Shown here one piece after another: positions 514 to 19,932 of a stretch of 20,000 bases of DNA. Within the stretch, counting starts at the first letter, position 1, and each line of letters begins with the position of its first letter. Both the position numbers and the translations under genes were made by a program. The stretch comes from an uncultured virus (IMG/VR IMGVR_UViG_3300032255_000165). Its lineage: Duplodnaviria; Heunggongvirae; Uroviricota; Caudoviricetes. The notes beneath the pieces were generated by a model. That model saw only the letters and a list, made by a program, of their open reading frames with translations. It did not search any database and was not told where the DNA came from. Location: IMG/VR virus record IMGVR_UViG_3300032255_000165; one strand, 5' to 3'.

Positions 514-2139
514 TTATTCGCCGGGGGCCGGTTGATCCGCCGGGGTTGTTTTTGTATCAGACCCGCTTTGACGGCTGGGGCTGGTGCGGCCCATGGCGGC
601 AAAATCCGGTTCTTTCAGTCCCAGTTCACGGCGACGGTCCTGTTCATAGCGTTGTTGTTCAAGGATATCTTCGAAATCCTGACCTTGTTCGTCTGCTTCC
701 TGTTGCAGGGTGGAAAGTCCGGCACCAATGCGTAAAAGTGCGGCTTGGGCTTCTTTGGTGGGATCAACCCACCCACGGGCCGGGCCGCGCCAACGGCATT
801 TGCTCCACGCGGCAGGTGCATCCCAAAATCCGGGTACACCGGAAGGCAATTCAATTTCACCGTTGTCGATGGCTTCTTCTAACCACAGGGTATAAATCGG
901 GGTGGCAAAACCGGTTGTGAAATGTAACCGCCGGGCGGTTAAAAATTTCCAGCTTTCGAGCAAGGAAGCCCGGGCGCTGGAATAATTTGTTTGTGACCAG
1001 TCTTGGGCAACCTGTTCGTAACTTTGGCCCAGACCGGCGGCAATATTGCGTAAAACAGCGCGTTCAAAATCGGCGAACCCGGCATTTGGACGACTGGCAG
1101 TTTGAAAATTCAGTTTTTCGCCGGGGAACAAAAACGGCAATTTCATACCGTCCAGCGTAAGATTTGAGGCTTCGTGATATTTCGAGCGCTGATCCTGATA
1201 ACTGTCACCCATCACCCCCAAGGCATCCGCGGTGACGTCATGGTCAAACGGGCTTTCGATAAAGGCGGCAAACACCGCGTTGGTCAGAGCAGCCTGTAAT
1301 TCCGTGCGTTCGTATTGATCGAGCATCTTGAATTTTTCAAGCACCGACGCCATCAAAGGTTTGCCGCGGGTTTGCCCGGCGCGGGCGGCTTCGAAGTGAT
1401 GCAAAACACGCAACCGGTTTTGTCCCGGCACGCGTTTTGGCACCCGGGTCCAGCGGTATTGTTCACGTCCGGCGAAGATTACATCAGAGGGATGACCATT
1501 GCGGATGTGAAAAGCCTGTGGTGCGCCGAAGCGGTTAATTTCAACACCGCCACGCAGGCGGTCGGTATCCGGTTTGCGGTTGGGGTTTGATAAACGGTCA
1601 GGATCGATGATTTGAATCGCGGTGGCGAATTTCGATCCACGATTTGGCAACCAGTGGGCAATACCCAGGCTTTCGCCTTCGACCATGTGGTGGCGGAAAG
1701 CAACACCCAACAAGCCCGATAAATTATTGCGTTCCGCCGCATCGATCAGATGGCGGGGATCATTGGCCCACGACCGAAATGACGCCTCTGTTTGTTTGGC
1801 CCAATCGGCGGATTCGGTGAAATTCCATCCCAATGCCCGCCAGTCAGGTCGGGCGGAAAGTTTAAAATCTCCGCCGATGGCTTGATCCACATGGCGCTGG
1901 ATCGCCCCCGCAGCCCAGCCATTATTGATGGTCATGTCGCGGGTACGGGCAACTAAATCATTGCGTTCCGGCAAAAAATCACGGTCCGCGGAATTCATGG
2001 ACGGTGACCAGCGCGCTAATTCTTGGGAATAGCGATCGGCACCACGGTGACTGGACGTGGCCGCCGCACGCATGGCGCCGCCCCGGTGATCAAACACCAT
2101 CGGCAGATTTGTTGTGGTCTGTGCGCGGGAACGGGTCAT
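514..2139 (-). CDS. Phage portal protein, lambda family
   Basis: 541 aa; RDMTINNGWAAGAI, GQTRGKP, NYSSARASLLE and WVDPTKE motifs. Confidence 0.95.
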   Translation of the reverse strand: MTRSRAQTTTNLPMVFDHRGGAMRAAATSSHRGADRYSQELARWSPSMNSADRDFLPERNDLVARTRDMTINNGWAAGAIQRHVDQAIGGDFKLSARPDWRALGWNFTESADWAKQTEASFRSWANDPRHLIDAAERNNLSGLLGVAFRHHMVEGESLGIAHWLPNRGSKFATAIQIIDPDRLSNPNRKPDTDRLRGGVEINRFGAPQAFHIRNGHPSDVIFAGREQYRWTRVPKRVPGQNRLRVLHHFEAARAGQTRGKPLMASVLEKFKMLDQYERTELQAALTNAVFAAFIESPFDHDVTADALGVMGDSYQDQRSKYHEASNLTLDGMKLPFLFPGEKLNFQTASRPNAGFADFERAVLRNIAAGLGQSYEQVAQDWSQTNYSSARASLLESWKFLTARRLHFTTGFATPIYTLWLEEAIDNGEIELPSGVPGFWDAPAAWSKCRWRGPARGWVDPTKEAQAALLRIGAGLSTLQQEADEQGQDFEDILEQQRYEQDRRRELGLKEPDFAAMGRTSPSRQSGSDTKTTPADQPAPGE

Positions 2140-5269: not shown

Positions 5270-5938
5270 TCATTTTATGTTTATTTTCATATAATTAAGT
5301 TTTTTATCATCAAATGTTTTAAAACAATCAAGCGCGAATCTAAGAGCCATTATTACATTTTCATAACGGCAACCATGTTTTTTTATTTGCCGCCGCAATG
5401 CGACACGTTCAACAATCAGATCCGTTAACACAACTGCTACTGATGTAAAATTATTATTCTGCTTACATGGTTTTAATGTCAGCAAATCAATTTTGTTTAT
5501 AGCTTTCAGCCATGGCTCCAAATATTCATGAATTAATCGGCCAACTGGTTCATCCGCCGCAAAAACTTGACGTTCATCACCAGACAAACGGACTAATCCA
5601 CCGCCGGAATTTTCCAAATCAACACACCCAGCCGATTCACGTCTGATTTTTTCATGCCAAAGAATGTCAATTTGTTCCAGCATCGTTTTTTGAGAATGAT
5701 CCAACGATGTTCCAGTGGTTAAGGCTTTGACCGGGTCGCGCCGCAACGAGCGTTGTTTTACAGTTTCCGGTGTTAAAACACTTTCAACCGCTTCAGCGGC
5801 TTTATCCATTCCTTCAAGGATTAAAACATTATGCAACCGCCGCACCACCGATTTTCCATGCGGAGTTTTTGCAGCTTCCGTTGCAATATCAGCAAAACAC
5901 TTAGCCGTTTTGGCCGTTGATCCTTGAACTTTTCGCAT
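5270..5938 (-). CDS. Probable late transcription regulator or antiterminator (DUF6456-like)
   Basis: AAGGA RBS; occupies the lambda Q position; C-terminal helical segment VLTDLIVERVAL...MALRFALD; family call tentative. Confidence 0.5.
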   Translation of the reverse strand: MRKVQGSTAKTAKCFADIATEAAKTPHGKSVVRRLHNVLILEGMDKAAEAVESVLTPETVKQRSLRRDPVKALTTGTSLDHSQKTMLEQIDILWHEKIRRESAGCVDLENSGGGLVRLSGDERQVFAADEPVGRLIHEYLEPWLKAINKIDLLTLKPCKQNNNFTSVAVVLTDLIVERVALRRQIKKHGCRYENVIMALRFALDCFKTFDDKKLNYMKINIK

Positions 5939-5952
5939 CAATATTTCCTTTC

Positions 5953-6183
5953 AGGATATTTAGGATATTCAGGACATTTCAAAACAGAGAATGTCCTGCC
6001 ATTTTTTCACTTATTATCAATCACTTATCTTGTTACAGGACCTTTAGGACATTAATGTTATCTATTCTTATATGTACTTGCGCGCACATGAGCCGGGTCA
6101 AACAAAGGTCCTAAATGTCCTATTGTCCTAAGTCATTGAAAAACAATGCTTATATTTAGGACCTTTCAGGACATTCAGGACAT
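5953..6183. repeat. Iteron cluster (AGGACAT-like, 12 copies); putative replication origin
   Basis: AT-rich region right after the helicase; copies in both orientations with 8-10 bp spacing within groups. Confidence 0.75.
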
Positions 6184-6193
6184 TTAAACGGAT

Positions 6194-7720
6194 TTATGAA
6201 CTTTGATCGGCCATATCGGCCCCCACCGGCACATCGTGAAGCTGAATATTTGTGTAATAAACCAACCCGCCAATTTTACCTTTTTCGACGCCCCGTTCCG
6301 GCAACACCCGCCCGAAAATATGCTTTGTCCATGGCTTTTCAGCATTTGCTGAACACCAATCCACATAAGCCGAATACATCGACGCCGCCTGAACATCGAC
6401 ACCATCGCATTTGCGAATGCAATCCGTGATAAATCGCCCGACCGGGTCTGAATCCGTACGATATTCATCCGTCGCCGCGCGCACGATATCCGGCACGATC
6501 AAGCCTTTTTCAAGCCATATCCGCACCCCGTCGAGCATCCAGTTCAAAACCCCGGATCGTTCCCGCCATAACTTTTCTGGCAAATCTCTGTCCTGTTGAT
6601 GGTCAGGTATATTTATTTCCCATGGTACCAGCAAAAACCGTCGCCAAATCCCCAAATCCTGCCCCCGGATGGATGGCTTGTGATTGCCGGATAACGTTAG
6701 TTTGAATTGCGGTACAAAATCAAAAAAACCATGGTTTAAATGGCGAACGGTAATTTCTTCACCACCGGTAATCGCCTTGATAGTTGCTTCGGCAAACCTT
6801 GACCCTTTTTCCGGTTCGCTGGCCCGCACCATCCGCGCCCCGGGCAACCGCGCCAGATCAGGCGTCGCTTCGGCTCCGCGTTTGCGATCATCGCGCAACA
6901 ATGATGCAAATGGCAACGTCACCGCGTACGGCCCCATCATCTTCGCAATAAGGTCTATGAAAACCGACTTTCCATTACCGCCTTCGCCATAATGAAAAAC
7001 CAGTTTTTGTTCATTGGTCACCCCGGTCAGGCAATACCCCGTCCACACCTGTAAAAATGCACGGATTTTTTCATCTGGCTGGACTTCTTTTAAAAACCTT
7101 AAAAACGTCGGACAATCCGCGTTGGCTTCAAAATCAACATCCAGTATTTTTGCCAGCCGATCTTCCCGTGCCTGTTTTAACAGTTGATCACAAGGCCCTT
7201 CCATCCGTAGCGTGCCGTTTGCCACATTTAACAATAACGGATTTTCATCCATCATTTCCGGCCCGACAGAAATATACGGCGCTGCCTCGGTCACCATCGC
7301 ATCCAGCTTTGATCTGTTGCCCGACGCCGTTGACCACTTGAATAAATCTTCCAGTTTTTTTTCCCAATCCGGGCGCGGGATATCGTCCGGACGGCCATTT
7401 TTTTGCAACGCCGCCACTTCTTCCAATATAGACCGCGCCGTTTCATGGGCGCGTTTTTTAACGATTTCATCGCCGCCAATCGGACTCCACCGCCGCCCGG
7501 ACCAATGATGCCATCCGACTTCACGCACATGTAATAAATCTTGGCCGTGGCGCGCTAAAAACCGTTCTGCATTGCCGATGTCGTTGCGTTCTTTATAAGC
7601 CAAATTGACATTTATTTCCCCGCCGCCACCGCCGGGCCAGCGAACCATTTCCGCGCCACCAATAGCCTGTTGAATGGCATTTTCACCAATTTCAGCCTGA
7701 TTTTCGTTGATACCATTCAT
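6194..7720 (-). CDS. P4-family primase/helicase (D5-like SF3 helicase part)
   Basis: NDIGNAERF, LLNVANG, GEGGNGKS Walker A, IKAITGG, GIWRR. Confidence 0.93.
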   Translation of the reverse strand: MNGINENQAEIGENAIQQAIGGAEMVRWPGGGGGEINVNLAYKERNDIGNAERFLARHGQDLLHVREVGWHHWSGRRWSPIGGDEIVKKRAHETARSILEEVAALQKNGRPDDIPRPDWEKKLEDLFKWSTASGNRSKLDAMVTEAAPYISVGPEMMDENPLLLNVANGTLRMEGPCDQLLKQAREDRLAKILDVDFEANADCPTFLRFLKEVQPDEKIRAFLQVWTGYCLTGVTNEQKLVFHYGEGGNGKSVFIDLIAKMMGPYAVTLPFASLLRDDRKRGAEATPDLARLPGARMVRASEPEKGSRFAEATIKAITGGEEITVRHLNHGFFDFVPQFKLTLSGNHKPSIRGQDLGIWRRFLLVPWEINIPDHQQDRDLPEKLWRERSGVLNWMLDGVRIWLEKGLIVPDIVRAATDEYRTDSDPVGRFITDCIRKCDGVDVQAASMYSAYVDWCSANAEKPWTKHIFGRVLPERGVEKGKIGGLVYYTNIQLHDVPVGADMADQSS

Positions 7721-8718
7721 GCCACTTTCCCAACCTGATTATCTAACATGTCATTAAAATCCATCCCCGTCGGGGGCCGTGCCACCCGCACCTGACAACC
7801 CCGCGCCGCATGAAAAGAAAATGCCTTTTCAAGATTTTTTTCGAGCGCTGCCTGATCGCCATCGCCGTCAACGCACAGGATTAAATCCTTGACTACCGGC
7901 GGCAATTCGATAGCCGCCATGTTGCCAAGGCTTCCCGCCACCCAAACCGGCAAGCCTGTAACCATCCGCACCGACAACGCCGTTTCTATCCCTTCGGCGA
8001 CACCTAACGTCGATGCCGCATGACAAAGCCGAACGCCACCGCCCCACACCACCCCGGCCATTTTTTTGGCGCTGGCGACCAAAGCCTTGCCCGATCCATC
8101 ATGCTGTAAAAATGTCCGGTGAATACCACACATCTTTCGTTTGCCGTCTTGCACGGCGGCCACCATCGCCGGGAACATCAACCCGGTATCTGCATGGCGC
8201 AACCCTGGATGAAAACGGATTGATGGCGGGATGCCACCCGGCAACCGCGCAACATCGATGCCGCGGCTTGATAAATATTTATCGATCAGCGTCCCGGATG
8301 CGGGGCGGCACTCACTCCAAACCCGCCGCGCCCATTGAATGCGATTTTGTTTTTCCTGTTTCAGGTCCTGTTGCAAAGGCCGCGCAATCGGTTTGGCCTT
8401 TGGCCGAACCCGGCCTGCATGATCAGGCTGCAAACCGGCACGGACGGCCAATTCTTCAACGGCCTCGACAAACGTTAAACCGCCTCGGTCTTTGATCCAG
8501 TCAATGGCGTCACCATGCCAGCTACAACCAAAACAATGGGCAAATCCCTTTTCTTCCGATACTGAAAAACTAGGCGTTTTTTCCGCGTGAAACGGACAAC
8601 ACCCCCAAAACTCACGGCCTTTGCGTTTTAAGGCAACGTCCCCGCCGATCAACTCCACCAAAGACGTACGGGCGCGCACATCATCCAGAAACCGGGCATC
8701 AAACTGCATTTTTGTCAT
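7717..8718 (-). CDS. DNA primase: CHC2 zinc finger plus Toprim domain
   Basis: CCPFHAEKTPSF...HCFGC; VAEGIETALS; DGD; DFND; start placed at ATG 8718. Confidence 0.9.
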   Translation of the reverse strand: MTKMQFDARFLDDVRARTSLVELIGGDVALKRKGREFWGCCPFHAEKTPSFSVSEEKGFAHCFGCSWHGDAIDWIKDRGGLTFVEAVEELAVRAGLQPDHAGRVRPKAKPIARPLQQDLKQEKQNRIQWARRVWSECRPASGTLIDKYLSSRGIDVARLPGGIPPSIRFHPGLRHADTGLMFPAMVAAVQDGKRKMCGIHRTFLQHDGSGKALVASAKKMAGVVWGGGVRLCHAASTLGVAEGIETALSVRMVTGLPVWVAGSLGNMAAIELPPVVKDLILCVDGDGDQAALEKNLEKAFSFHAARGCQVRVARPPTGMDFNDMLDNQVGKVA

Positions 8719-9338
8719 GCTGCCACCGCCCCACCAAAGCAAGAATTTATGTGCAAATTACTATTTTTGAGTCTATAATCCTTTGCTTTCAGAAATTTTC
8801 CATAAATACAAAGGAACTTCACATGCAAATTCCATCCGAAGCCACCATTACTAATTTTACCGAAGCCGAACCGGGCGACTTGCTTGTTTACAAACCGAAT
8901 GATCAAGGCCCCTTGATGTATGGAATCCGCGCAATTCTTCAAAGGGAAAAACCGCAATCGCCATCGCCATATATTATCCAATTGAACAACTTGGCCCAAA
9001 ATGGTCACAGCAAACCGTGTGTTTTTGATAATTTGCAAAATCCACTTACAGTTTTCAGCCTTGGGAAAAACTGGTTTTTTGACGTGAATATTAACGACAC
9101 CGAACCCGGTTTTGTTTCCGGAAATAACGACGTCTTGATTCGCAGAGACAATATTTATTTCATTCATCTGGTTGGGGAGAGGTATTTCAATACCAATAAT
9201 GGTGATCTTGTTGATTCTCTTAATAATAATGCTGGAAAACTGTTTTGGTGCACTTTCACCATCAAACTTCGCCAACCCGATGGGGCCGACCCGGTTGTTA
9301 TTTTTACCTACCCTGAAACGGTCTGATTTTTCCATCAT
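8715..9338 (-). other. Antisense bridge ORF (207 aa) linking methyltransferase and primase
   Basis: ATGA overlaps at both ends; in register with the plus-strand moron; translation unproven. Confidence 0.35.
8823..9326 (+). CDS. AT-rich hypothetical protein, counter-oriented moron (167 aa)
   Basis: AAGGA RBS before ATG 8823; TATAAT at 8774-8779; globular-looking sequence. Confidence 0.7.
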   Translation: MQIPSEATITNFTEAEPGDLLVYKPNDQGPLMYGIRAILQREKPQSPSPYIIQLNNLAQNGHSKPCVFDNLQNPLTVFSLGKNWFFDVNINDTEPGFVSGNNDVLIRRDNIYFIHLVGERYFNTNNGDLVDSLNNNAGKLFWCTFTIKLRQPDGADPVVIFTYPETV

Positions 9339-10363
9339 GCCACCTCTACAACCGAAAACATCCCGGCGTTTTCATCAATGCGCTGCCGGGCAATTTCCAC
9401 ATATTCCAGATTCAGTTCGATCAAAATGGCTGACCGTTGTAACTGATCAGCGACCAGCCCGGTTGTACCGGCACCGCCGAACGGATCCAGTACTGTGCCA
9501 CCAACCGGGCAACCGGCTTTGATACAGCGCGCCGCTAATTCTGGTGGGAAGGTCGCAAAATGCGCTGCCGAAAACGGTTTGGTCGCTATCGTCCAGACAT
9601 TGCGGCAATTGCGGCCATTTTCTTGCTGCTCAGCGCGGGTCATACCATCCCACCGATTGTTAAACCCGGTGTGTGGGCGACTTGCTCCGCGCGGGCGCTG
9701 TTTTTGAACCGCTTTCATCGGCCTATTTTTACGAGTGCCGCCATTGGCGCGCTCACTGCCTTTTTGCTGACCTACGTTCTGTTGTAATCGCGTCACCGTT
9801 GACTGTGTGGCTGGCTCCCGCACCGCTTCGACGTCATAAAAATATTTTGCCGATTTCGATAACAAAAATATTTTTTCATGGGCCGTGGCCGGGCGATCGG
9901 TGATGCTTTCCGGCATCGGGTTGGGTTTCGCCCAAATGATTTCCGACCTGACCCACCAACCGTCTTCTTGCAGGGCAATCGCCAACCGGTTCGGCACCAT
10001 GCATAAATCTTTTGCCTTGAGGACACCCTGAATTGTTGAAAACGGCTTATCCCGAAAAGTGCGATCATCACCACCAGCGGCTTTTGTCGCCGCAGCGCTT
10101 CGACCGTTCGGGCTGGTGGCGTAACAATCGCCGTAATTGAGCCATAAAGTCGCCGTCGGTTTCATCACCCGCCGGACGCCACGGAAAACTTTAACCATTT
10201 TTTTAATGTGTTCGCCAATTGTCGGTTCCAGCCCAATCTGTCCAGCAACCCCGTAATCGCGAAGCCCCCAATAGGGCGGGCTTGTGACTACGCAATCAAT
10301 GGAATTTTCGGGCAAATCAGCCAGCCGTTCACAGACATCGCCCGGAATGATTTGCACGCTCAT
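9335..10363 (-). CDS. Orphan DNA methyltransferase, N4/N6 beta class
   Basis: VTSPPY before LDPFGGAGTT; HFATFP; no adjacent endonuclease. Confidence 0.93.
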   Translation of the reverse strand: MSVQIIPGDVCERLADLPENSIDCVVTSPPYWGLRDYGVAGQIGLEPTIGEHIKKMVKVFRGVRRVMKPTATLWLNYGDCYATSPNGRSAAATKAAGGDDRTFRDKPFSTIQGVLKAKDLCMVPNRLAIALQEDGWWVRSEIIWAKPNPMPESITDRPATAHEKIFLLSKSAKYFYDVEAVREPATQSTVTRLQQNVGQQKGSERANGGTRKNRPMKAVQKQRPRGASRPHTGFNNRWDGMTRAEQQENGRNCRNVWTIATKPFSAAHFATFPPELAARCIKAGCPVGGTVLDPFGGAGTTGLVADQLQRSAILIELNLEYVEIARQRIDENAGMFSVVEVA

Positions 10364-10812
10364 ATCACCATCCGGTAATCATCACCGTCATCGCCGGATT
10401 TCCATTCCGCCGTGTTCTGACACGGCCCGCAAATCCGGTTTCCGGTCCAGGTTGATTTAAACGTGTTTTGACAGCGCAAACAGACCCGGTCTTGCCCGCT
10501 GGTTTTTTTATGACTGACCCCGAATGGATCGCGTGTTGTTCTTTGCCCGGTTGCCGTGATGGTAACAATGCGCCGTTTGTGTCCACCATAATGTTCAACG
10601 GAAATCAAACCGGCAGAAATCAGTTCATCAAACAGTTTTTTGACGTTGCTGGGGCTGACGGCCAAATGCTTTTCAAGCAATATTTCCGCACCCGGGCAAA
10701 TTTCATTGTTTTTTGCCGCCTCAGAAACGATTTTATACAACCGTTCCGCAGCCGCCGAAATTCCGTTGTTGATTTTTGCTTTATCCTGCACTTTTCCGTC
10801 CTTTCGTTTCAT
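10360..10812 (-). CDS. Hypothetical protein, winged-HTH-like region plus C4 zinc ribbon
   Basis: CLRC...NRICGPC; ATGA overlaps at both ends. Confidence 0.7.
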   Translation of the reverse strand: MKRKDGKVQDKAKINNGISAAAERLYKIVSEAAKNNEICPGAEILLEKHLAVSPSNVKKLFDELISAGLISVEHYGGHKRRIVTITATGQRTTRDPFGVSHKKTSGQDRVCLRCQNTFKSTWTGNRICGPCQNTAEWKSGDDGDDYRMVI

Positions 10813-11219
10813 GCCGCACCTTTAATTTCGATCAATGGATAATCAATTTCCGCTTCCCCGATCATGGCTAAAACCGTGTTTGCGGCATTGATCACATCGA
10901 CCGCGCGCACCGCCCGGCCATCCAGCACAAACCCGCCCGGGGATCCGACATCTACCGCCGCCCGGCTGCCAAGGGCATAAATTGCCCGTTGCATGGGATC
11001 GACCCGGCCAATGATGGCCGCTTCCCGGCTGATTAAAAAACCGACCCGGCGCGCCACATCGGTAAACGGCCGTTTGAATTCCGACGCCAGATTGTGAAAT
11101 TCGGCGACAACATCCGGAAATGACCGCCCCGAACACCACACCGACATGATCGCCCGGTCTTGTCCGAGGCTGAAATATGTAAACCCGGCCCATTTCCGGG
11201 CTGTCGGACATCGGGTCAT
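10809..11219 (-). CDS. Phage hypothetical protein
   Basis: 4-nt start/stop overlaps with both neighbours. Confidence 0.7.
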   Translation of the reverse strand: MTRCPTARKWAGFTYFSLGQDRAIMSVWCSGRSFPDVVAEFHNLASEFKRPFTDVARRVGFLISREAAIIGRVDPMQRAIYALGSRAAVDVGSPGGFVLDGRAVRAVDVINAANTVLAMIGEAEIDYPLIEIKGAA

Positions 11220-11404
11220 TTTTCACCTGTCCTGACTTTTTTGAATTCGCGGGCATAACGGATTTCAATGCCGCGGCCTAAAACCCGGCCACCGATCCGG
11301 GACAATGCGCAACCGGCATCGATCATCTTGCCGCCCGCAAACCAGAAAATAATCCAGAAAAATTCCCGCCATTTCGGCACATAATATTTGTGTCGGATTT
11401 TCAC
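11216..11404 (-). CDS. Small hypothetical protein
   Basis: GTGA and ATGA overlaps with neighbours. Confidence 0.55.
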   Translation of the reverse strand: MKIRHKYYVPKWREFFWIIFWFAGGKMIDAGCALSRIGGRVLGRGIEIRYAREFKKVRTGEK

Positions 11405-11697
11405 GCCATTGATCCATTGTTCCAGTAATAATTTGCCCGCCCCGGTTGCCGGTCCCGTATCGGCACCCGAACCACATCATCCGGGGTGCGCGTCGATGCC
11501 TTGAACACGGCAAAATAATCCTGCCACCGTGCCGCCGCCCGGCCCGTAAACGGACAATCACCGATCACGCCGCCGGTCTTGGCAACATCCAGCGCGTGCC
11601 AGATAATTTCGATCGCGCCCGGGTTTGTTTTGCCGATGGTCACCATTTTTGCCCGCTCGCTTTCAGACATCGGATAAAATTCAGTTGTGATTTTCAT
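11401..11697 (-). CDS. Hypothetical protein (98 aa)
   Basis: AAGGTG RBS before ATG 11697; overlaps both neighbours. Confidence 0.6.
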   Translation of the reverse strand: MKITTEFYPMSESERAKMVTIGKTNPGAIEIIWHALDVAKTGGVIGDCPFTGRAAARWQDYFAVFKASTRTPDDVVRVPIRDRQPGRANYYWNNGSMA

Positions 11698-12103
11698 GAT
11701 TTTCACCTTTTTCCATGATCGCCGCGGCCTGTAAAATGGCGACAATCGGGGTTTGACCGACGAACAACGGCGGCCCGCCCGGCCGGGACGGACCCGGTAA
11801 ACCGGCACCGGATATCCCGGACACACATTTTAAAATTTCCTGAAAATTCAGACCGGCCTGTCGCAACATCGACGCCTGGATACAGCCGACATGAATGATA
11901 TCCTGCATCAATGACCCCTCTTTCGGGCCGGTGGCGAACACTTCGCACATCGTGAACGGCTCCGGATCGTCAGGACCGTAATATCCGAAACCGATTTCGA
12001 ACGGTTGTGGCTGATCGCCCGGCAACTTGATCCATTCGATGCGCATTAATTCCGCCGCCCGTCTTGGGGCCGGGCTGTGACGCTGGAACCGGGGCGCTGT
12101 CAT
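11681..12103 (-). CDS. Stand-alone TSCPD-like domain protein (resembles class II RNR C-terminus)
   Basis: PRR...GYY...EVFATGPKEGSLM...ASMLRQAG pattern; start at ATG 12103 by ATGA overlap. Confidence 0.55.
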   Translation of the reverse strand: MTAPRFQRHSPAPRRAAELMRIEWIKLPGDQPQPFEIGFGYYGPDDPEPFTMCEVFATGPKEGSLMQDIIHVGCIQASMLRQAGLNFQEILKCVSGISGAGLPGPSRPGGPPLFVGQTPIVAILQAAAIMEKGENHENHN

Positions 12104-12381
12104 GACAACCCCCTTTTGATAAAAATGACCGCGTGCATAATCATGGATGACCCCAAAGACAGCGACAGCCACAGCCCGATAATCGCCACCGGCACCCACC
12201 ATTCCCAATCATCCCGGTTTGGCCCCGGCATCCGGTCCAGCCAAAAATCAAACCGTAAAACCTGAGAAAAAAAGCGGCGCACAGATTGACAGCGACTTTC
12301 ACCACCACCAACCCGCGCGCCAGTTTCACCCAGGGAGGGATTTGAATTGAAAAAATAAAAAAATTTGCCGATCATATCCAT
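12100..12381 (-). CDS. Hypothetical protein with a C-terminal hydrophobic helix
   Basis: WWVPVAIIGLWLSLSLGSSMIMHAVIFI; fills the operon gap. Confidence 0.55.
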   Translation of the reverse strand: MDMIGKFFYFFNSNPSLGETGARVGGGESRCQSVRRFFSQVLRFDFWLDRMPGPNRDDWEWWVPVAIIGLWLSLSLGSSMIMHAVIFIKRGLS

Positions 12382-12384
12382 CGC

Positions 12385-12936
12385 CTAAGCCCCCTGCCGC
12401 CCGGTGCGCAACACCCGCGCCGCCACCGTGCGCCCGCCCGCGGGCGGACGAACCCGGCGCATGTCGTCGCGGTCTAAAATCAACGATGATATGATCGCCA
12501 CAAACGACAACATCAGTCCGGTTTGTCGTATTGTCCGCGCCACCATTTTGCCGCGGCCAGATGCCGGATGGCCCAATTGGCGTGAAGCCGCGCCAGAATT
12601 CGCGCCACAATTTTCTTCAATTTCCATCTCCTGTTTCAGCCGCCGGGCATCCGCTTCGATGCGTTCCAGACGGCGTGACAAACTGACCTCGGTTTCCGAT
12701 AATACCGGCTCGAATATATCTTCCAGAAAAGCCACGCCCCAGCGTTCGGCCATCAAAATCAGGTGCCGCATTTGCGGGTATTGCCCGCCGCGCCAGTTTT
12801 TTGCCGTGCGTGCCTCGACCCCGAACATGCGCGCCAGTTCCTTGGCCGGATACGGCCTCAACCAGTTTGCCAGCCGTTCACCGATGGGGTTTTCAAATCC
12901 CGCCGCTTCAAACAATTTCTGGGCTGCAAAGGTCAT
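12385..12936 (-). CDS. HTH regulator in the CII position
   Basis: AKELARMFGVEARTAKNW HTH, coiled coil, hydrophobic C-terminal segment; start at ATG 12936. Confidence 0.7.
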   Translation of the reverse strand: MTFAAQKLFEAAGFENPIGERLANWLRPYPAKELARMFGVEARTAKNWRGGQYPQMRHLILMAERWGVAFLEDIFEPVLSETEVSLSRRLERIEADARRLKQEMEIEENCGANSGAASRQLGHPASGRGKMVARTIRQTGLMLSFVAIISSLILDRDDMRRVRPPAGGRTVAARVLRTGRQGA

Positions 12937-13175
12937 GGTTTTACCCCCGCAAACCGGGCACATTCAACATCAGACAACAATAGGCAAAGGAAACCGCCAC
13001 CATGAACGAACAATTGAAACAACAACTGGCGAACCACGCCGCCGAAATCCGCGCGCTGGCCTTGCCCCACCCCGATCATGCCACCTTGCTGGTGACGCTG
13101 GGCGATTTGATCGACGCCGTTGCCGATGCGCCGGGTCACGCCGATGAAAGCAAGAATGATCAGAATAATAATCAT
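12933..13175 (-). other. Bridge ORF (80 aa) linking cro-like and cII-like genes
   Basis: ATGA overlaps at both ends; in register with plus ORF 13002-13253. Confidence 0.4.
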
Positions 13176-13253
13176 GCCGCCTCATCAGGAATGTTAAAGA
13201 AATCTATGGGCAACACTGGAGGGGTCAATCTTGTGCCCGCTTGCAAAATATGA
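13002..13253 (+). CDS. Small counter-oriented hypothetical protein (83 aa)
   Basis: AAAGGAAA RBS; helical N-terminus MNEQLKQQLANHAAEIRAL; 3' end overlaps the cro-like gene. Confidence 0.5.
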   Translation: MNEQLKQQLANHAAEIRALALPHPDHATLLVTLGDLIDAVADAPGHADESKNDQNNNHAASSGMLKKSMGNTGGVNLVPACKI

Positions 13254-13399
13254 TTATGATATTTTGACGGAATATACCCAGAATCATGCCACCCTTGGAC
13301 TGTGGTTTTGGGAATTCGCCGACCAATAATGTCTGTCAAAATATCAGCCATAACTTGGTAGCTAACAAACCGGCTTATAATATTCTGATGTGGGGTCAA
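13172..13399 (-). CDS. Cro-like HTH protein (75 aa)
   Basis: Divergent from CI; GGAG RBS then TTG 13399; TTVQGWHDSGYIPSKYH motif. Confidence 0.8.
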   Translation of the reverse strand: MTPHQNIISRFVSYQVMADILTDIIGRRIPKTTVQGWHDSGYIPSKYHNHILQAGTRLTPPVLPIDFFNIPDEAA

Positions 13400-13427
13400 C
13401 TTGATTCTCCATTCCAATATTTTATAT

Positions 13428-13475
13428 TTCGTACGGTAATTTCGTACGAATGTCAATATCTTTCCGTACGCGTAC
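13428..13475 (-). promoter_or_regulatory. pR-like promoter with operator
   Basis: TTGACA 13456-13451; CGTACG-N7-CGTACG 13430-13448; further CGTACG at 13465-13470. Confidence 0.8.
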
Positions 13476-13514
13476 AAAAAAAATAATTGGTTTTCACTAA
13501 AAAGGAACGGCAGA

Positions 13515-14246
13515 ATGCAATTTATGACTGGAAAAGCTGCCAAACGACTAAAAGCAATCAGAGAGCAAACACCTTTATCAATAGGCGACGTTGCGAAGTT
13601 AATTGGTATGCAAAAATCCAGCTATCAATATTATGAAGACAAATATAAAAAAGTTTTTCTTCCACTTTCATTAATGCAGAGATTGGCGCCTATTTTCAAA
13701 GAATATGGTGTTCCAGAAGAAGATACACTTGAACTAGGTGGCATCATCACTCGCAATAATTCTGATAAACCCACAAAAAAACCTACCCAAATTTCGCCCG
13801 ATTCCCCGCCTATGTTGCCACCAAGGCATGAAATGCCGCTGGATGTGCCCGTTTACGGCACCGCCGCAGGGTCACTGGGACAGGGAAGTTTTCAAATGGC
13901 ATCAGGCGAAATAATCGACCGCGTTCGCAGAACCCCCGGCATCGCCAACGCCAAAGATGTGTACGCGCTTTACATCGAAGGCGAAAGCATGTCGCCCCGC
14001 TACGATCCGGGTGAACTGGTTTATGTGTCCGAAAAAAGGCCCGTCCGCGTTGGCGATTATGTGATAGTGCAGGTCCAGAACGGCGAACACGAAGGCATTC
14101 AGGCATATATTAAAAAACTGATCCGGCGCAAACCGGATTGGCTCGTTCTGGAACAGTTGAATCCGCCCGCGACTATCGAGATCGAAACCAAGAGCGTTAA
14201 AGCCGTGCACCGGATTTTAACGATGAATGAACTTGCAGGTGTGTAA
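13515..14246 (+). CDS. cI: CI-like repressor (HTH plus S24 peptidase)
   Basis: N-terminal HTH; VPVYGTAAG cleavage region; GESMSP Ser; YIKKL Lys. Confidence 0.93.
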   Translation: MQFMTGKAAKRLKAIREQTPLSIGDVAKLIGMQKSSYQYYEDKYKKVFLPLSLMQRLAPIFKEYGVPEEDTLELGGIITRNNSDKPTKKPTQISPDSPPMLPPRHEMPLDVPVYGTAAGSLGQGSFQMASGEIIDRVRRTPGIANAKDVYALYIEGESMSPRYDPGELVYVSEKRPVRVGDYVIVQVQNGEHEGIQAYIKKLIRRKPDWLVLEQLNPPATIEIETKSVKAVHRILTMNELAGV

Positions 14247-14287
14247 TCGAAAAACCCCGTAACGCGTTACGTAAAATACCGGATAGG

Positions 14288-14321
14288 CGGGGTTTTTTGT
14301 TGCCTGATTGGTGCGCCTGAA
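14288..14321 (+). repeat. 34-bp direct repeat, copy 1
   Basis: CGGGGTTTTTTGTTGCCTGATTGGTGCGCCTGAA, identical to 15173-15206. Confidence 0.95.
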
Positions 14322-14352
14322 ATGAAAAATGACCAACAATTTTTCTGTTTAT

Positions 14353-14404
14353 TACGCCATTGGCGCACTTTTGCATTGACACACCTGCGCCAATGGCGTA
14401 TATA
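14353..14404 (+). promoter_or_regulatory. TA operon promoter with 15-bp inverted-repeat operator
   Basis: TACGCCATTGGCGCA 14353-14367 and TGCGCCAATGGCGTA 14386-14400; TTGACA 14376-14381, 17 nt, TATATA. Confidence 0.8.
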
Positions 14405-14410
14405 CATTTC

Positions 14411-14830
14411 ATGTTCAAGGCAAAGCAATATCCAATTACGGTTTCAGAGATGCCGCTTTTTCGAAAGCAAGCACTCGCAATGATGACGGAAACGGAAATT
14501 GCCGAACTTATTGGACATTTGGCTTTCACCCCAACTGAGGGTGCCATAATGCAAGGCACCGGCGGGATAAGAAAGTTGCGATGGGCGCTTGAAGGTAGAG
14601 GGAAAAGCGGTGGAGCGCGGATCATCTATTTTTACTATGATCTGAATATGCCGTTGTACCTTTTGGCGTGTTATCCAAAAAATAAAAAAATATCACTCAC
14701 TGACGCAGAAAAAGCGCAACTCAAAAACGTTGTCAAAGAGTTGGTAAAAACCAGACATGGGCAGAATGTCCAGTCGAGTGTTAAAGGAGAAAATAACCAT
14801 GAAAAAATCAGTAGGAGAAGAGATACTTGA
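14411..14830 (+). CDS. higB: RelE/HigB-family toxin
   Basis: GTGGIRKLRW..GRGKSGGARIIYFY...LLACYPKN; toxin-first order. Confidence 0.9.
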   Translation: MFKAKQYPITVSEMPLFRKQALAMMTETEIAELIGHLAFTPTEGAIMQGTGGIRKLRWALEGRGKSGGARIIYFYYDLNMPLYLLACYPKNKKISLTDAEKAQLKNVVKELVKTRHGQNVQSSVKGENNHEKISRRRDT

Positions 14831-15101
14831 AAGCCTTGAAGGCGCTCTTGCACATGCTACAGGAAAAGACGTGCCTGTTCGGGAAACGACAATTTATGTT
14901 CCCGCCGATATTGACGTAAAATCCATCCGGGAACGGTTGGGTCTGAGTCAATCCGAATTTGCCGTTCGGTTTGGTTTCAGTATCGGTGCCGTCAGGCATT
15001 GGGAACAAGGGCGAAGACAGCCGGATGGCCCTGCCAGGGCATATTTGAAAGTGATCGGATGTGATCATGTGGCCGTTGAAAAAGCCCTTGCCGCCTTGTA
15101 G
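14799..15101 (+). CDS. higA: HigA-like XRE antitoxin
   Basis: AAGGAG RBS; DVKSIRERLGLSQSEFA...WEQGRRQPDGPA. Confidence 0.9.
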   Translation: MKKSVGEEILESLEGALAHATGKDVPVRETTIYVPADIDVKSIRERLGLSQSEFAVRFGFSIGAVRHWEQGRRQPDGPARAYLKVIGCDHVAVEKALAAL

Positions 15102-15120
15102 GTATAGCTAAATCAAGTTG

Positions 15121-15147
15121 AAAGCCCCGCTTCGGCGGGGTTTTCTT
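15121..15147 (+). terminator. Intrinsic terminator after the TA pair
   Basis: AAAGCCCCGC-TTCG-GCGGGGTTTTCTT. Confidence 0.85.
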
Positions 15148-15172
15148 TGGCCTTTTTCAAAATGCCATCTAA

Positions 15173-15206
15173 CGGGGTTTTTTGTTGCCTGATTGGTGCG
15201 CCTGAA
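15173..15206 (+). repeat. 34-bp direct repeat, copy 2
   Basis: Identical to 14288-14321. Confidence 0.95.
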
Positions 15207-15257
15207 CCGCCACCATCCTGCGGTTTGCCGCATCCGACAAAATAAAAACGCCAATAC

Positions 15258-15302
15258 TGTACGAATTTTTCGTTTGACATTCGTACGAACATTCCGTACG
15301 TT
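15258..15302 (+). promoter_or_regulatory. pL-like promoter with operator
   Basis: TTGACA 15274-15279, 17 nt, TACGTT; CGTACG-N7-CGTACG 15282-15300. Confidence 0.8.
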
Positions 15303-15329
15303 ATTTCAAACAATAACGTCGAGGATGCC

Positions 15330-15533
15330 ATGACCCCACACAACAACCCGTTAAACAGCCAATGCAAAATCACCGCCGTCGACAATAATCGCAAGCTGGC
15401 GATGGATGTCATCACCGGACGTGTTGCCAGCACCGCCACGTATCGCGGTTTGGCTTGGCGGTTTCTGAAACGCTGGGGCGTCACCGACGACCCCCGGACG
15501 CACACACCACCCCACCACCCGGACGCGGCGTGA
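15330..15533 (+). CDS. First gene of the early operon, hypothetical (67 aa)
   Basis: GAGG RBS, directly after the pL-like promoter. Confidence 0.65.
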   Translation: MTPHNNPLNSQCKITAVDNNRKLAMDVITGRVASTATYRGLAWRFLKRWGVTDDPRTHTPPHHPDAA

Positions 15534-15568
15534 TGTTTATTCAACAATTTAATTTATTGGAATATTAT

Positions 15569-16384
15569 TTAATCTGTTGCCGGACGCAAAATCAGCACTT
15601 TTTTAATTTCGCCTTCGACAATCGAAAATTCTGCTTCCACGTTAATGTACTGGCCCTCGCTAAGGGCCGCCCCATAAACATTCCCGTTAACACGAATAGC
15701 AGGGTCAAGAACGGCCCCTCTAAACCGTTTATTTTCACCTTCAAACGATACCTTGCATCCGCCAGTTACCCGGTCAAGTTCTGTAATCTTAACTCTTGCT
15801 GTGTGAGGTTCAATTTCAGCTTCGGGACCAAGTTCAATAATTGTTCGGTCACGGGCATTGAGGACAAGTTCATTTCGTGTACCGGCATTAATGACCATTT
15901 CATCACAACCGGAACTAATCGCCGCAACGCTTCGAATGGCTGCAGGACGTTTTGGTTCCAGTTTTTCAAGAAACATTTTTATCAGTTTTTGCGTATGCTC
16001 ATTATTATGCCCAATTTGCTGCATAAGATCATGAATAATTTGTTCCAAAATTTTCTGTTTATTTTTATTCGCGTAGGTGGCAAATACAAGCCCTACCAAA
16101 ACACCAAACAACCCATTGCTTGCACTGATTACAAGAGGGCTTTGACTAACCGCTTCGATCAGTGGGATGAATTCAAAGCTACCAGGAACCGGTGCTTGTG
16201 TAACAAGTCTAACCGTCCGCGAAGTCCGACGCAGAATAACTCGTTGCGTAATCGCAAATTCTGCACAAAACCCCAAAATATCATCAAGCCCATCAGCGGA
16301 CCTTGCAAATTCCCTGAGCGGCAATCGGTGTTCATCGGCCCAACCACCGACATATTTAATCGTTATTGGTTCCAAAAGCGACAT
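15569..16384 (-). CDS. Counter-oriented hypothetical moron (271 aa)
   Basis: G-rich RBS and ATG; natural composition; central hydrophobic segment GLFGVLVGLVFATYA. Confidence 0.85.
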   Translation of the reverse strand: MSLLEPITIKYVGGWADEHRLPLREFARSADGLDDILGFCAEFAITQRVILRRTSRTVRLVTQAPVPGSFEFIPLIEAVSQSPLVISASNGLFGVLVGLVFATYANKNKQKILEQIIHDLMQQIGHNNEHTQKLIKMFLEKLEPKRPAAIRSVAAISSGCDEMVINAGTRNELVLNARDRTIIELGPEAEIEPHTARVKITELDRVTGGCKVSFEGENKRFRGAVLDPAIRVNGNVYGAALSEGQYINVEAEFSIVEGEIKKVLILRPATD

Positions 16385-16464
16385 CCGCCCCCCCTTTAAA
16401 CGGTTATTCCATAAAAAACACTACCGCATAATTATAAAACACGCCAGACGTGAAAGGTTTTAAA

Positions 16465-16758
16465 ATGACAAACAAGCCGACTATTCAAACCAAGGACCTT
16501 AACAACATACAAAAAAAACTAATTTGCTGGCTGGCCAATGGCGGGTTCACCCGAGGTGTTTGGTCAAACGACGACACGTCTTTCACCCTTTATCGGTTTA
16601 CAACCCGGCGAACAATTAAACAGCATTTATGGCTGCCCCTTGTAAAAGCCGATTTGATCCGGGGTTTTGAATTAACAAAAAAAGGCCATGCCATGTCAAA
16701 AGTCATTCAAGAGGACGCCGATCTGGACAATATTCCCGACACCGGGGAAAAGGAATAA
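16465..16758 (+). CDS. Hypothetical protein
   Basis: AAAGG RBS before ATG 16465. Confidence 0.6.
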   Translation: MTNKPTIQTKDLNNIQKKLICWLANGGFTRGVWSNDDTSFTLYRFTTRRTIKQHLWLPLVKADLIRGFELTKKGHAMSKVIQEDADLDNIPDTGEKE

Positions 16759-17906: not shown

Positions 17907-18668
17907 GTGACAAATTTAGGCCCAAAACCACGAATAGAATTTCATTCGCCGGACAAATTAATTATCGATGCCCGTTATCAAAGATCTATTTCAAGAACAG
18001 CAGGAAAAAAATTAATTGCAACAATTGTGAATGAATTTTATTGGCCGTTTTTTGGTGTTTTATCAGCAACAGACAACGGTGACGGCACATATTGCCTGAT
18101 TGACGGGCAACATCGAGCCGAAGCCGCACGTCAGCATCCAAACGTTCATTCGGTACCGGTTATGGTGATTGATGAAATGACGTTATCAGAACAAGCAAAA
18201 GCATTTGTGACTATGAACAAAAACAGGGTCCGACTCAGTGCGCTGCAAATCCACAAAGCCGCCGTTTTAGCCGGCGATAGAGATGCAGTGACCATAAACG
18301 AAATTACAAAAAAATTTGGCATTAAAATTCTTACCGGAAACAAATCATCCGTAAACATGAAGCCCGGACAAACATTAGCCGTCAGATCGCTTTATTCTAT
18401 CTTAAAAAAATACGGACCGCCCGGCCTTAATAGAACCATCAAAACCGTGATGATGGCATATGGTGAAACAATTGGTGATTTGCGGTCTTTTATATTTACA
18501 GCCACGGCACAGGCTGTGAACAGCCACCCAGATCACACCGATCAAATTGCTGAAGTTTTGGCGAATGATGATGCTGTATCTTGGCAAGAAAAAGCCAAAG
18601 TTAAAGCAAAATTTAACGGCACAAACGCGCGAAACCAACTAGCCATTATGTTGACGAAAAAAATTTAA
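17907..18668 (+). CDS. ParB N-terminal-like domain protein (DUF6551-like)
   Basis: IDARYQR and LIDGQHRAEAA motifs. Confidence 0.75.
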   Translation: MTNLGPKPRIEFHSPDKLIIDARYQRSISRTAGKKLIATIVNEFYWPFFGVLSATDNGDGTYCLIDGQHRAEAARQHPNVHSVPVMVIDEMTLSEQAKAFVTMNKNRVRLSALQIHKAAVLAGDRDAVTINEITKKFGIKILTGNKSSVNMKPGQTLAVRSLYSILKKYGPPGLNRTIKTVMMAYGETIGDLRSFIFTATAQAVNSHPDHTDQIAEVLANDDAVSWQEKAKVKAKFNGTNARNQLAIMLTKKI

Positions 18669-18712: not shown

Positions 18713-19102
18713 ATGCCTCTGATTTTACCAGAACTATACACACTTGACGAAGTGATGACCGCGATCAACGCAAAAGAAAAGGTTGTTTCTAAGCGCACTC
18801 TTGAGTCTATCATACAAGAACTGGGTTTGACTGCCGGGCGTGGTCGATGCCGGGTGTTCAATATAAAACAGGCTAATCAGATATTGGAGCAAATCACATG
18901 CCGACATTCTATGAGCCAGGAAAACGTAAAAACAACAAAACCTGGGTGGCAAGAGGCCGCATCATCGGCAAACAATACGAGATTGTTACAGACGCGAAAA
19001 ACAAAAGCGCTGCGCGCCACGAATGGCGCGAATTCGAAACGGCCGTCCGCAACCGTGACGGACATCGGGCGCAAAAAGAGCCGACATTCACCGACGCCAT
19101 AA
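18713..19102 (+). CDS. Probable excisionase
   Basis: LYTLDEV HTH-like N-terminus; immediately upstream of and overlapping the integrase. Confidence 0.6.
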   Translation: MPLILPELYTLDEVMTAINAKEKVVSKRTLESIIQELGLTAGRGRCRVFNIKQANQILEQITCRHSMSQENVKTTKPGWQEAASSANNTRLLQTRKTKALRATNGANSKRPSATVTDIGRKKSRHSPTP

Positions 19103-19932
19103 CCGAATATCGGCAATTCGCCAACCCACGCCCCGCTGAAATGGCGTTCATCGAAAAACTTGAAAAATATTTCAAAGGTTGGCCGGTGGCCGGGGTCACC
19201 CATGCCGACATTGCTCGCGCCGCCAATGACCTATACCCGGGCCGCGCCAACGCCACAAAAAACAGACAGGTCTATACCCCGATGGGCGCTATCCTGCACT
19301 ATGCATCCGAAATTGGGATGCGTGATTATTTGGTGGTCAGAAAATTACCACAGACCAAGCCCGCCCGACGACGACCCGCAACCGGTACCATCGATAAATT
19401 ATTAAAAAATACAGACGGATATCAGCACCTGTTTTTATCGTTCATCTATTATCAAGGATGGCGCATTAGTGAAACACTTCATTTGCGATGGAATGAAACC
19501 GGTCATGATTCTTTCATCGATTTATCCAGCAAGGTTTTTGTTTTTTATATCCCCAAAGCCGACGCATGGAAGGTCCTGCCCATCCACGACCGAGTTTTTA
19601 TATTGCTTGTTTCCTTACCGGCCAATGAACGCCGCGGCAAAGTTTTTCCGTGGGCTTGTCGGTCCAGTGTTTATTCGTGGCTAAACCCACTGTGCGACAA
19701 ATTAAAAGTCAAATTCACACCCCATCAGGCGCGTCATGAATGGGCCACAGTCCGCAACGAAGACCAGTGCACAGCGGCCGATATGGTCAGCGCGAACACA
19801 TGGACATCCGAACGATCTGTGGCCGGATATACAGAGGTCACAATCGATCATGCACGGTCCGTTTTGAACCGTGGAAAAAGTCAAAAAATCGTATATTCGC
19901 GGGGAAAATCGAGGGGACGCCAATCTAAATGA
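18898..19932 (+). CDS. int: Tyrosine integrase
   Basis: GWRISE (R), IPK (K), HQARH (HxxR), W and VAGYT (Y); adjacent to tRNA fragment. Confidence 0.92.
   Translation: MPTFYEPGKRKNNKTWVARGRIIGKQYEIVTDAKNKSAARHEWREFETAVRNRDGHRAQKEPTFTDAITEYRQFANPRPAEMAFIEKLEKYFKGWPVAGVTHADIARAANDLYPGRANATKNRQVYTPMGAILHYASEIGMRDYLVVRKLPQTKPARRRPATGTIDKLLKNTDGYQHLFLSFIYYQGWRISETLHLRWNETGHDSFIDLSSKVFVFYIPKADAWKVLPIHDRVFILLVSLPANERRGKVFPWACRSSVYSWLNPLCDKLKVKFTPHQARHEWATVRNEDQCTAADMVSANTWTSERSVAGYTEVTIDHARSVLNRGKSQKIVYSRGKSRGRQSK

Follow-up and report, generated by a model that had tools for sequence, protein, structure and literature searches.

Counter-oriented genes in the early operons of a temperate prophage are overlaid by open antisense frames joined to their operon neighbors

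We analyzed a 20,000-nucleotide (nt) stretch of DNA from an uncultured virus of the Caudoviricetes (IMG/VR record IMGVR_UViG_3300032255_000165). This stretch, which we refer to in its entirety as the window, is a temperate prophage, and three of its genes are oriented against the early operon that surrounds them. We found that each of these counter-oriented genes (hereafter cargo genes, cases 1 to 3) is overlapped by a stop-free frame on the operon strand, which we call a bridging frame or bridge, and which begins on the stop codon of the preceding operon gene. That selection keeps these frames open is well supported by codon statistics together with the comparison with relatives of the phage. 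We lean toward the view that the open frames serve to let ribosomes cross the inverted cargo, which would preserve the translational coupling of the operon genes and perhaps also avoid Rho polarity.

The three pairs of opposing frames were confirmed in their coordinates and at their junctions, as the first-pass annotation of the window had described them: each cargo gene has a codon-aligned, stop-free frame on the operon strand whose ATG lies on the upstream stop, and in cases 1 and 2 this frame also ends, by an ATGA, on the ATG of the next gene. The pairs lie at 8712/8823..9326 (+) versus 8715..9338 (-) for case 1, at 13002..13253 (+) versus 12933..13175 (-) for case 2, and at 15569..16384 (-) versus 15455..16399 (+), with an in-frame ATG at 15533, for case 3. 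Coordinate arithmetic gives triplet boundaries that are common to both members of all three pairs, i.e. the frames are codon-aligned. The bridging open reading frame (ORF) of case 1 has 207 codons and starts with MMEKS; it shares an ATGA with the stop of a DNA methyltransferase (MTase) gene at 9335-9338 and, at its own stop, another with the ATG of a primase gene at 8715-8718. The 80-codon case-2 bridge starts in an ATGA shared with the stop of a cro-like gene (13172-13175) and stops in an ATGA shared with the ATG at 12936. The case-3 bridge, taken from the in-frame ATG (15533..16399, +), has 288 codons and starts in a TGATG (15531-15535) shared with the stop of a small gene, orf67. Stop/start overlaps are found at five of the six bridge junctions in the window. 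The same anatomy is seen in two cassettes of relatives that are described below, a hicAB pair in contig L059 and a DUF4145 gene in phage L076: the start codon of the bridge overlaps, or directly adjoins, the stop of the operon gene before it in cases 1-3, in L059 (ATGA), and in L076 (11-nt overlap), and the bridge stop lies on the start of the next gene in all of these except case 3. All six cargo genes (five cassettes, three related phages) are codon-aligned with their bridges. The bridges include stop-free non-coding flanks of 39, 16, 34, and 29 codons, and the cargo stop lies 1-11 nt from the stop of the upstream gene, leaving almost no spacer. We also considered the right ends of the cassettes as a special shared site, and rejected this because the motif GGTGGC(R)GCATGA found there merely reflects a stereotyped style of operon junction.

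The codon-aligned antisense frame, in which stops arise from TTA, CTA, and TCA codons, is the antisense frame that is most easily kept open, and for it to be open the sense gene must have none of these three codons. We counted none among the 167 codons of the case-1 cargo gene and none among the 271 codons of the case-3 cargo gene. All 26 co-oriented genes of the window carry at least one such codon (170 of 5406 codons pooled, with rates of 0.007-0.058), and among the 28 window genes it is the two large counter-oriented ones that have the lowest rates. In the rightward operon, other, co-oriented AT-rich genes carry 10-13 of them, and the CI repressor gene, as had been claimed earlier, uses them within its first 25 codons (CTA, TTA, and TCA at 0-based codons 11, 20, and 21). 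The case-2 cargo gene has three (TCA, TCA, and TTA at 0-based codons 60, 61, and 64), all beyond the start of the bridge, which overlaps only cargo codons 1-57 of 83; for case 2 alone the count is not significant. Synonymous-codon shuffling with local usage had been set beforehand as the test, and open frames rarely arose in it: resampling with the codon usage of the window, where TTA or CTA makes up 25.5% of Leu codons and TCA 21.4% of Ser codons, gave P = 2.2e-3 for case 1 and P = 1.6e-5 for case 3. The background control consisted of 587 long ORFs (150 codons or more, greedy longest), which came from parts of some twenty genomes belonging to one phylum. The three codons were absent from 11 of the 587 overall and from 0 of the 267 with a GC content at third codon positions (GC3) below 0.47; GC3 is 0.44 in the case-1 cargo gene and 0.35 in the case-3 cargo gene, and a negative-binomial fit to these 267 low-GC3 ORFs gave P values of 1.7e-3 and 9.6e-5, respectively. 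The avoidance is frame-specific: in the two other frames, TTA, CTA, and TCA add up to 14 and 7 occurrences for case 1 and to 24 and 6 for case 3. The ratio of TTA to TTG is 0:6 in case 1 and 0:7 in case 3, and the other purine-ending two-fold codons end in A at ratios of 20:1 and 39:7.

Homologs of the case-3 gene outside such a context, with similar GC3 (n = 3), carry 10 antisense stops in 272 codons, 18 in 270, and 12 in 164, as expected if selection acts on the copy in the window. In one of these genomes (L001) the gene is co-oriented with its upstream neighbors, and a serine recombinase gene follows downstream on the opposite strand. This copy, which is the closest genomic homolog of the case-3 gene (L001, 3995-4819), adjoins a large serine recombinase (5317-6948) in a metagenome-assembled genome of the Rhodospirillaceae, which suggests that the DUF7946/7947 gene of case 3 is mobile cargo there too.

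A mosaic relative of the window, the IMG/VR contig L059, allowed the comparison to be made within the same context. Identity to the window is 94-100% at the end of the case-3 gene and in orf67 and 47-83% in the leftward genes; the immunity region is different, and its cro gene is P22-Cro-like and non-homologous to the cro gene of the window. The case-2 module is present in L059, with 52% amino acid (aa) identity in the cargo frame and 40% in the bridging frame. The L059 bridge (1621..1869) is open, with an ATGA on the stop of the different cro gene and an ATGA on the ATG of the next gene. A homolog in the same context thus stays open and keeps its ATGA junctions at both ends behind a non-homologous cro. 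Across 55 aligned codons, the two modules differ at 52 nucleotides, which fall at cargo codon positions 1, 2, and 3 in 17, 10, and 25 instances. In this small sample, codon changes that are silent in the cargo alone number 11, and those silent in the bridge alone number 2.

The other junctions of the leftward operon differ in what they carry. L059 joins its MTase and primase genes directly by ATGA, without cassette 1, from which we conclude that cassette 1 is an insertion. The window joins gene g10360 directly to the MTase gene, and the same site in L059 holds a counter-oriented hicA-hicB pair, whose two genes are adjacent and 3 nt apart (HicB_lk 27.8 bits and HicA 26.3 bits, against a cut-off of 27 each, so that HicA falls just below). 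A codon-aligned operon-strand ORF of 246 codons spans the pair with ATGA at both ends, and the pair has 0 TTA, CTA, or TCA codons in 210 (P = 9.4e-5 with the usage of that phage). No empty site for case 3 was found via relatives of the gene that follows cassette 3. In a search for further cases, 80 MTase-bearing loci were scanned for stretches that are open in both aligned frames. In L076, a counter-oriented DUF4145 gene (33 bits) is convergent with the MTase gene, their stops lying 1 nt apart, and has 0 of the three codons in 224 (P = 1.3e-2); an ORF of 254 codons spans it and overlaps the end of the MTase gene and the start of the next gene by 11 nt each. The hicAB and DUF4145 cargo genes have a GC3 of 0.53-0.61, where the chance test is weaker than for cases 1 and 3.

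A 15-nt stretch, ATGATGGAAAAATCA, which encodes MMEKS, opens both the case-1 bridge (9324-9338, -) and the L059 hicAB bridge, and takes in the cargo stop codon on the opposite strand. In L059 an 18-nt copy (4409-4426 and 4047-4064; 17 of 18 identical) lies within the preceding g10360-like gene, 362 nt upstream, and the start of the L059 primase gene resembles the ATGATGGAAAAATCA start. A footprint of recombination, or an end common to the cassettes, might account for this repeat. A scan of viral contigs for the shared cassette start, ATGATGGAAAAATCARRCC, returned four matches, namely the L059 contig and three unrelated chance matches.

The counter-oriented genes at 8823..9326 (+) and 15569..16384 (-) are real genes. 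The former encodes a 167-aa all-beta protein, for which an exhaustive HMMER search found 25 full-length distant homologs at E<=1e-3 (five at E<=1e-10) that are 26-37% identical, equal in length, and aligned from residue 1. With the alignment of these homologs, AlphaFold (AF2) gave a confident all-beta model with a predicted local distance difference test score (pLDDT) of 92.4; a single-sequence fold was poor (pLDDT 35), and a PDB fold search with the model gave no match at E<=0.001. By exact look-up, the public protein collection contains the 206-aa operon-strand product (on 5 contigs) and not the plus-strand protein, so public gene callers chose the wrong strand at 8715-9338. The opposite assignment for case 1, a real gene on the operon strand with the plus-strand ORF as its shadow, is ruled out by the 25 homologs, their alignment, and the AF2 model. 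We found no close relatives of either case-1 strand product, and none of the case-1 and case-3 proteins in viral contigs. DNA encoding case-1 homologs was found neither by closer sub-alignment, nor in 401 genomes of one phylum, nor by tblastn in phage and plasmid collections, and the case-1 region gave no blastn match in phages. The case-3 cargo gene matches DUF7946 (E 1.9e-25, 90.4 bits) and DUF7947 (E 5.8e-11, 42.7 bits; Pfam cut-offs 27) as well as phrog_5147, and has homologs at 57-60% identity. The case-2 cargo gene encodes 83 aa behind an AGGAAA Shine-Dalgarno sequence, and its tail overlaps the 3' end of cro; judged by the comparison with L059, its plus-strand frame is the constrained one. 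Read by eye, a TATAAT hexamer at 8774..8779 (+), 44 nt upstream of the case-1 cargo ATG, is a weak candidate for its promoter, and an AGGA 7 nt before that ATG is a possible ribosome-binding site. Visual inspection showed such hexamers ahead of the case-1, case-3, and hicA cargo genes alike; a consensus promoter scan did not list them, and a terminator scan found no terminator after the cargo genes.

If the cargo strand carries real genes, the bridges could be real genes as well, i.e. genuine antisense overlapping genes with functional products on both strands, a possibility that had been raised in the first-pass annotation and that we consider unlikely. It draws support from the good starts of the bridges, with their ATGA overlaps and with GAGG-like motifs upstream of the case-1 and case-2 ATGs, and from a codon discriminant of sense versus antisense, whose values for case 1 (+0.047 per codon) and case 2 (+0.09 per codon) are ambiguous next to the +0.135 to +0.40 of 19 known genes. 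In addition, first-position differences in the case-2 cargo gene are fairly frequent (17, against 25 at the third position), and the case-2 pair stands directly after cro, like a pair of overlapping genes described for phage Fc02 (PMC9936078). The bridge products themselves argue otherwise. They match no family in Pfam, PHROG, PADLOC, or NCBIfam, and the case-1 bridge has no homolog among 5.8 billion proteins in a search whose word index limits its reach (exhaustive HMMER was applied to the cargo protein). The ESM model of the case-1 bridge has a pLDDT of 0.30 and a predicted template modeling score of 0.16, and the best feature matches reach 0.80-0.81, a level that shuffled proteins attain a third of the time. 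The case-3 bridge product is absent from the protein collection, has a low Atlas recognition score (883), and is rich in Cys, Phe, and Asn (14, 35, and 32 of 288 residues). The five bridges have no sequence in common beyond the first five codons of two of them. Finally, protein-level purifying selection is not seen on both frames of case 2: the bridge is less conserved than the cargo (40% versus 52% identity), and the codon changes favor the cargo frame by 11 to 2 in 55 codons. Because the case-2 substitutions follow the cargo frame and the bridge products lack homologs, families, and a confident fold, the evidence favors selection on the act of translation and not on the bridge protein. The earlier interpretation is supported in part, by the shuffling and the homologs, and of its two alternatives the one in which both strands encode real proteins has become less tenable through the missing families and the case-2 substitutions.

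We propose the following mechanism for such transit. Translation is coupled through overlapping stop and start codons, and Rho acts on untranslated mRNA, giving polarity. The window would have two divergent early operons, each with the same operator-like 16-mer, in which translation is chained from gene to gene. A ribosome that finishes the upstream gene would restart on the overlapping ATG and read through the cargo in antisense; in cases 1 and 2 it would come to its stop codon right at the ATG of the following operon gene. Such transit requires that the cargo have no TTA, CTA, or TCA codon, which is found here against the local codon usage. Selection would have kept the frame open in one of two ways: inserts may have persisted only where their antisense frame was open by chance, or the frame may have been cleared of stops by later synonymous substitutions. 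With transit, the replication or integration genes further downstream would stay translationally coupled, and neither Rho nor nucleases would meet a long untranslated stretch.

Several observations weigh against this proposal. The case-3 bridge stops at 16399 and leaves a gap of 65 nt to the next ATG (16465). In the 80 MTase loci, eight of the nine embedded counter-oriented genes with GC3 below 0.56 carry antisense stops, hicA being the only exception; these come from a home-made gene caller that gave 80 'embedded' counter-oriented genes in the 80 loci and is too noisy in GC-rich phages for a reliable denominator. An embedded counter-oriented HNH endonuclease gene (L112) has eight antisense stops. 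Another of the nine (L104, 3573-4178) matches helix-turn-helix (HTH) families and is possibly a repressor gene that forms a separate transcription unit, and four others have no Pfam match. L076, the phage with the bridged DUF4145 cassette, has a second counter-oriented cargo gene just upstream of its MTase gene (6477-6902, -) with seven antisense stops; it has a signal-peptide-like N-terminus and larger spacers (34 and 93 nt). Eight double-open stretches (at least 140 codons, GC below 0.53) lie inside ordinary co-oriented genes of the 80 loci, so chance cases do exist. None of the 14 Leu codons of the co-oriented RelE-like gene of the window is TTA or CTA, and TTG and CTT are preferred in all cargo genes, so a codon dialect shared by the cargo may inflate the odds: by our own estimate, the three large cassettes have a joint chance of ~2e-4 at the rate of the RelE-like and HTH genes (~0.013 per codon), far above the naive product of ~1e-11. 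The sequence support for the Rho argument is also thin, only the case-3 bridge being richer in C than in G (C/G ratio 1.39, against 0.74-1.06 in the other five bridges), and for this reason coupling seems to be the more general benefit. Together, the design is recurrent and not universal, and seems to be confined to cargo that is packed with almost no spacer between chained genes.

These observations raise the question of whether chance, the codon dialect, and our own selection of cases could account for the open frames altogether, with the ATGA junctions being ordinary operon style. We regard this as a little more doubtful still than functional bridge proteins. Besides the double-open stretches and the preference for TTG and CTT, the co-oriented RelE-like and HTH genes together have only three TTA, CTA, or TCA codons in 231, open ORFs are not rare at GC3 above 0.5 (11 of 320), the range of hicAB and DUF4145, and the scan behind the finding covered very many windows. 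The start of the case-1 bridge, which resembles the L059 primase start, may likewise be inherited and not evolved. However, the two strongest cases have a GC3 of 0.35 and 0.44, where none of 267 background ORFs is open, the lowest rates in the window fall precisely on the two large counter-oriented genes, and AT-rich co-oriented genes of the rightward operon do contain 10-13 such codons. Chance and dialect also do not explain the stop-free non-coding flanks, the stops that lie exactly on the next ATG, or the openness of case 2 after 52 differences in 55 codons. The least probable alternative in our view is that the frames are translated to block pairing with the convergent cargo mRNA (duplex cleavage) or to stabilize the early mRNA against endonucleases, which would fit the fact that sense and antisense RNAs should coexist after induction because the cargo genes appear to have their own start signals, and possibly their own promoters, facing the operon, and would also fit C/G ratios that, in five of the six bridges, speak little for strong loading of Rho, but which leaves unaccounted for that two bridges stop precisely on the next ATG.

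If ribosome transit across inverted cargo is indeed selected, it would explain how cargo expressed in the lysogen (toxin-antitoxin and candidate defense genes) can stand head-on in essential early operons without spacers, promoters, and terminators. Genome context would also be seen to influence synonymous codon choice by a new route, with the absence of three codons as a readable mark of antisense translation. We tentatively suggest that such 'translational bridges' could form an undescribed class of elements in temperate phages of this group, i.e. non-functional frames that are obligatorily open and for which the cargo gives up TTA, CTA, and TCA, so that it could sit inverted in chained operons without causing polarity. 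If this holds more generally, genes acquired horizontally would be constrained by operon context at the codon level, and measurably so. Standard gene callers would then systematically pick the wrong strand where cargo is bridged, as they did at 8715-9338. Since the public gene calls list the 206-aa bridge of case 1 and not its 167-aa cargo protein, cargo genes of this kind are being missed in annotation.

The minus-strand leftward early operon runs from the cro-like gene (13172..13399, -; TTG start behind GGAGA; NCBIfam carph-isopro domain, E 4e-8) through about nine small genes to the N6/N4 DNA MTase gene, the upstream neighbor of cassette 1 (9335..10363, -; PF01555, E 4e-48; 81% identity in L059), the primase gene, its downstream neighbor (7717..8718, -; CHC2 zinc finger, DUF7146, and Toprim), and, at the end of the chain, a D5-type primase/helicase gene (6194..7720, -; assigned by family matches). 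The operon gene after the case-2 bridge (g12385; 12385..12936, -), whose ATG overlaps the bridge stop, has 79% aa identity in L059. Nearly all junctions of this operon are stop/start overlaps of 1-17 nt, mostly ATGA, and the chain of overlapping or abutting ORFs is almost unbroken; the list of junctions bears out the earlier statement that the operon is almost continuously translatable from cro to the helicase. Relatives of the primase, helicase, and MTase genes (L005, L006, and most of L066-L145) come mostly from far GC-richer loci (median locus GC 0.62, versus 0.49 in the window); the backbone of the window may have moved into a host of lower GC content, or its modules may differ in origin.

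On the other strand, a CI-type S24 repressor gene (13515..14246, +) is followed directly by a RelE-like/HTH pair (14360-15101, +), in which a RelE-family toxin-like gene pairs with an HTH partner (NadS/MqsA-like). This operon is followed by a terminator-like hairpin with a U-run (15120..15148, +; minimum free energy -21.2 kcal/mol, z -3.3), which the terminator scan did not list. The 16-mer TTGACATTCGTACGAA occurs exactly twice in the window (0.04 expected): upstream of cro at 13441..13456 (-), with CGTACG palindromes at 13430, 13443, and 13465, and at 15274..15289 (+), with CGTACG at 15282 and 15295. The two sites are likely to be divergent CI-controlled early promoters with CI operators. The first ORF past the second of these putative promoters is orf67 (15330..15533, +; GAGGA Shine-Dalgarno), with which the rightward operon starts and whose stop overlaps the ATG of the case-3 bridge. 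The next co-oriented gene lies at 16465..16758 (+), and an integrase gene (18898..19932, +) ends the operon. Just upstream of the integrase, a gene at 17907-18668 encodes a protein that resembles the DGQHR domain weakly (NCBIfam, E 8e-8, below the cut-off).

The metagenome contig L002 matches the window exactly on either side of a patch in orf67, including in the promoter, the operators, and the case-3 gene. In the patch itself (window 15355-15530; L002 2639-2839; L059 125-325) we observed about 40 substitutions and no indel, with sharp boundaries in L002. Compared to the window, the orf67 alleles have 73% aa identity in L002 and 94% in L059, and the frame and the TGATG junction are kept in all three. 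The three alleles suggest that orf67, with which the rightward early operon opens, is hypervariable or mosaic. A diversity-generating retroelement was considered as the source of the patch and rejected, as the substitutions are not confined to adenines.

The bridging frames can be compared to several known systems. As in ordinary translational coupling, ATGA and TGATG overlaps chain the operon genes, and an untranslated insert would break this chain and expose the RNA; unlike in usual coupling, the coupling element is a frame through the antisense strand of another gene and requires the recoding of that gene. The cargo also recalls the morons of lambdoid phages, which are cargo genes with their own expression signals between conserved genes, self-contained and flanked by a promoter and a terminator. 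Like morons, the cassettes come and go at junctions, cassette 1 being absent from the L059 junction and hicAB from the window junction, and their GC content (0.42-0.44) differs from that of the backbone (about 0.5-0.55), the cargo including a toxin-antitoxin pair and a DUF4145 gene. Unlike morons, cassettes of the type found in the window have almost no spacer and no terminator seen in the scan, and an operon-strand frame runs across them. In a full-text literature search we found no paper on operon-strand frames that bridge inverted cargo between coupled genes.

Shadow ORFs arise mostly in GC-rich genes through codon bias and are discussed as candidate protein genes. Long antisense 'shadow' ORFs or overlapping genes are described for E. 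coli and Pseudomonas (bioRxiv 10.1101/2021.02.09.430400, PMC9927249, PMC3454372). Unlike these, the bridges of the window lie in AT-rich cargo against the local codon usage, are tied to operon orientation, and are bounded by coupling junctions. They also do not behave as chance shadow ORFs would: their frequency is unlike that predicted from local usage or GC3, they are linked to junctions, and the frame is open in the diverged homolog of case 2.

The closest counterpart that we found in print is in Pseudomonas phage Fc02: gene 10, beside ner in its lytic operon, and olg1 overlap on opposite strands, and the products of both excluded phages when expressed from plasmids (PMC9936078). The arrangement is like that of case 2, and in the same position: a gene of the early lytic operon that follows a cro/ner-type gene overlaps a gene of the lysogenic side on the opposite strand. 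The window differs in that its operon-strand products look non-functional, its frames run exactly from the stop of one neighbor to the start of the other, and its layout recurs over unrelated cargo at other positions of the operon.

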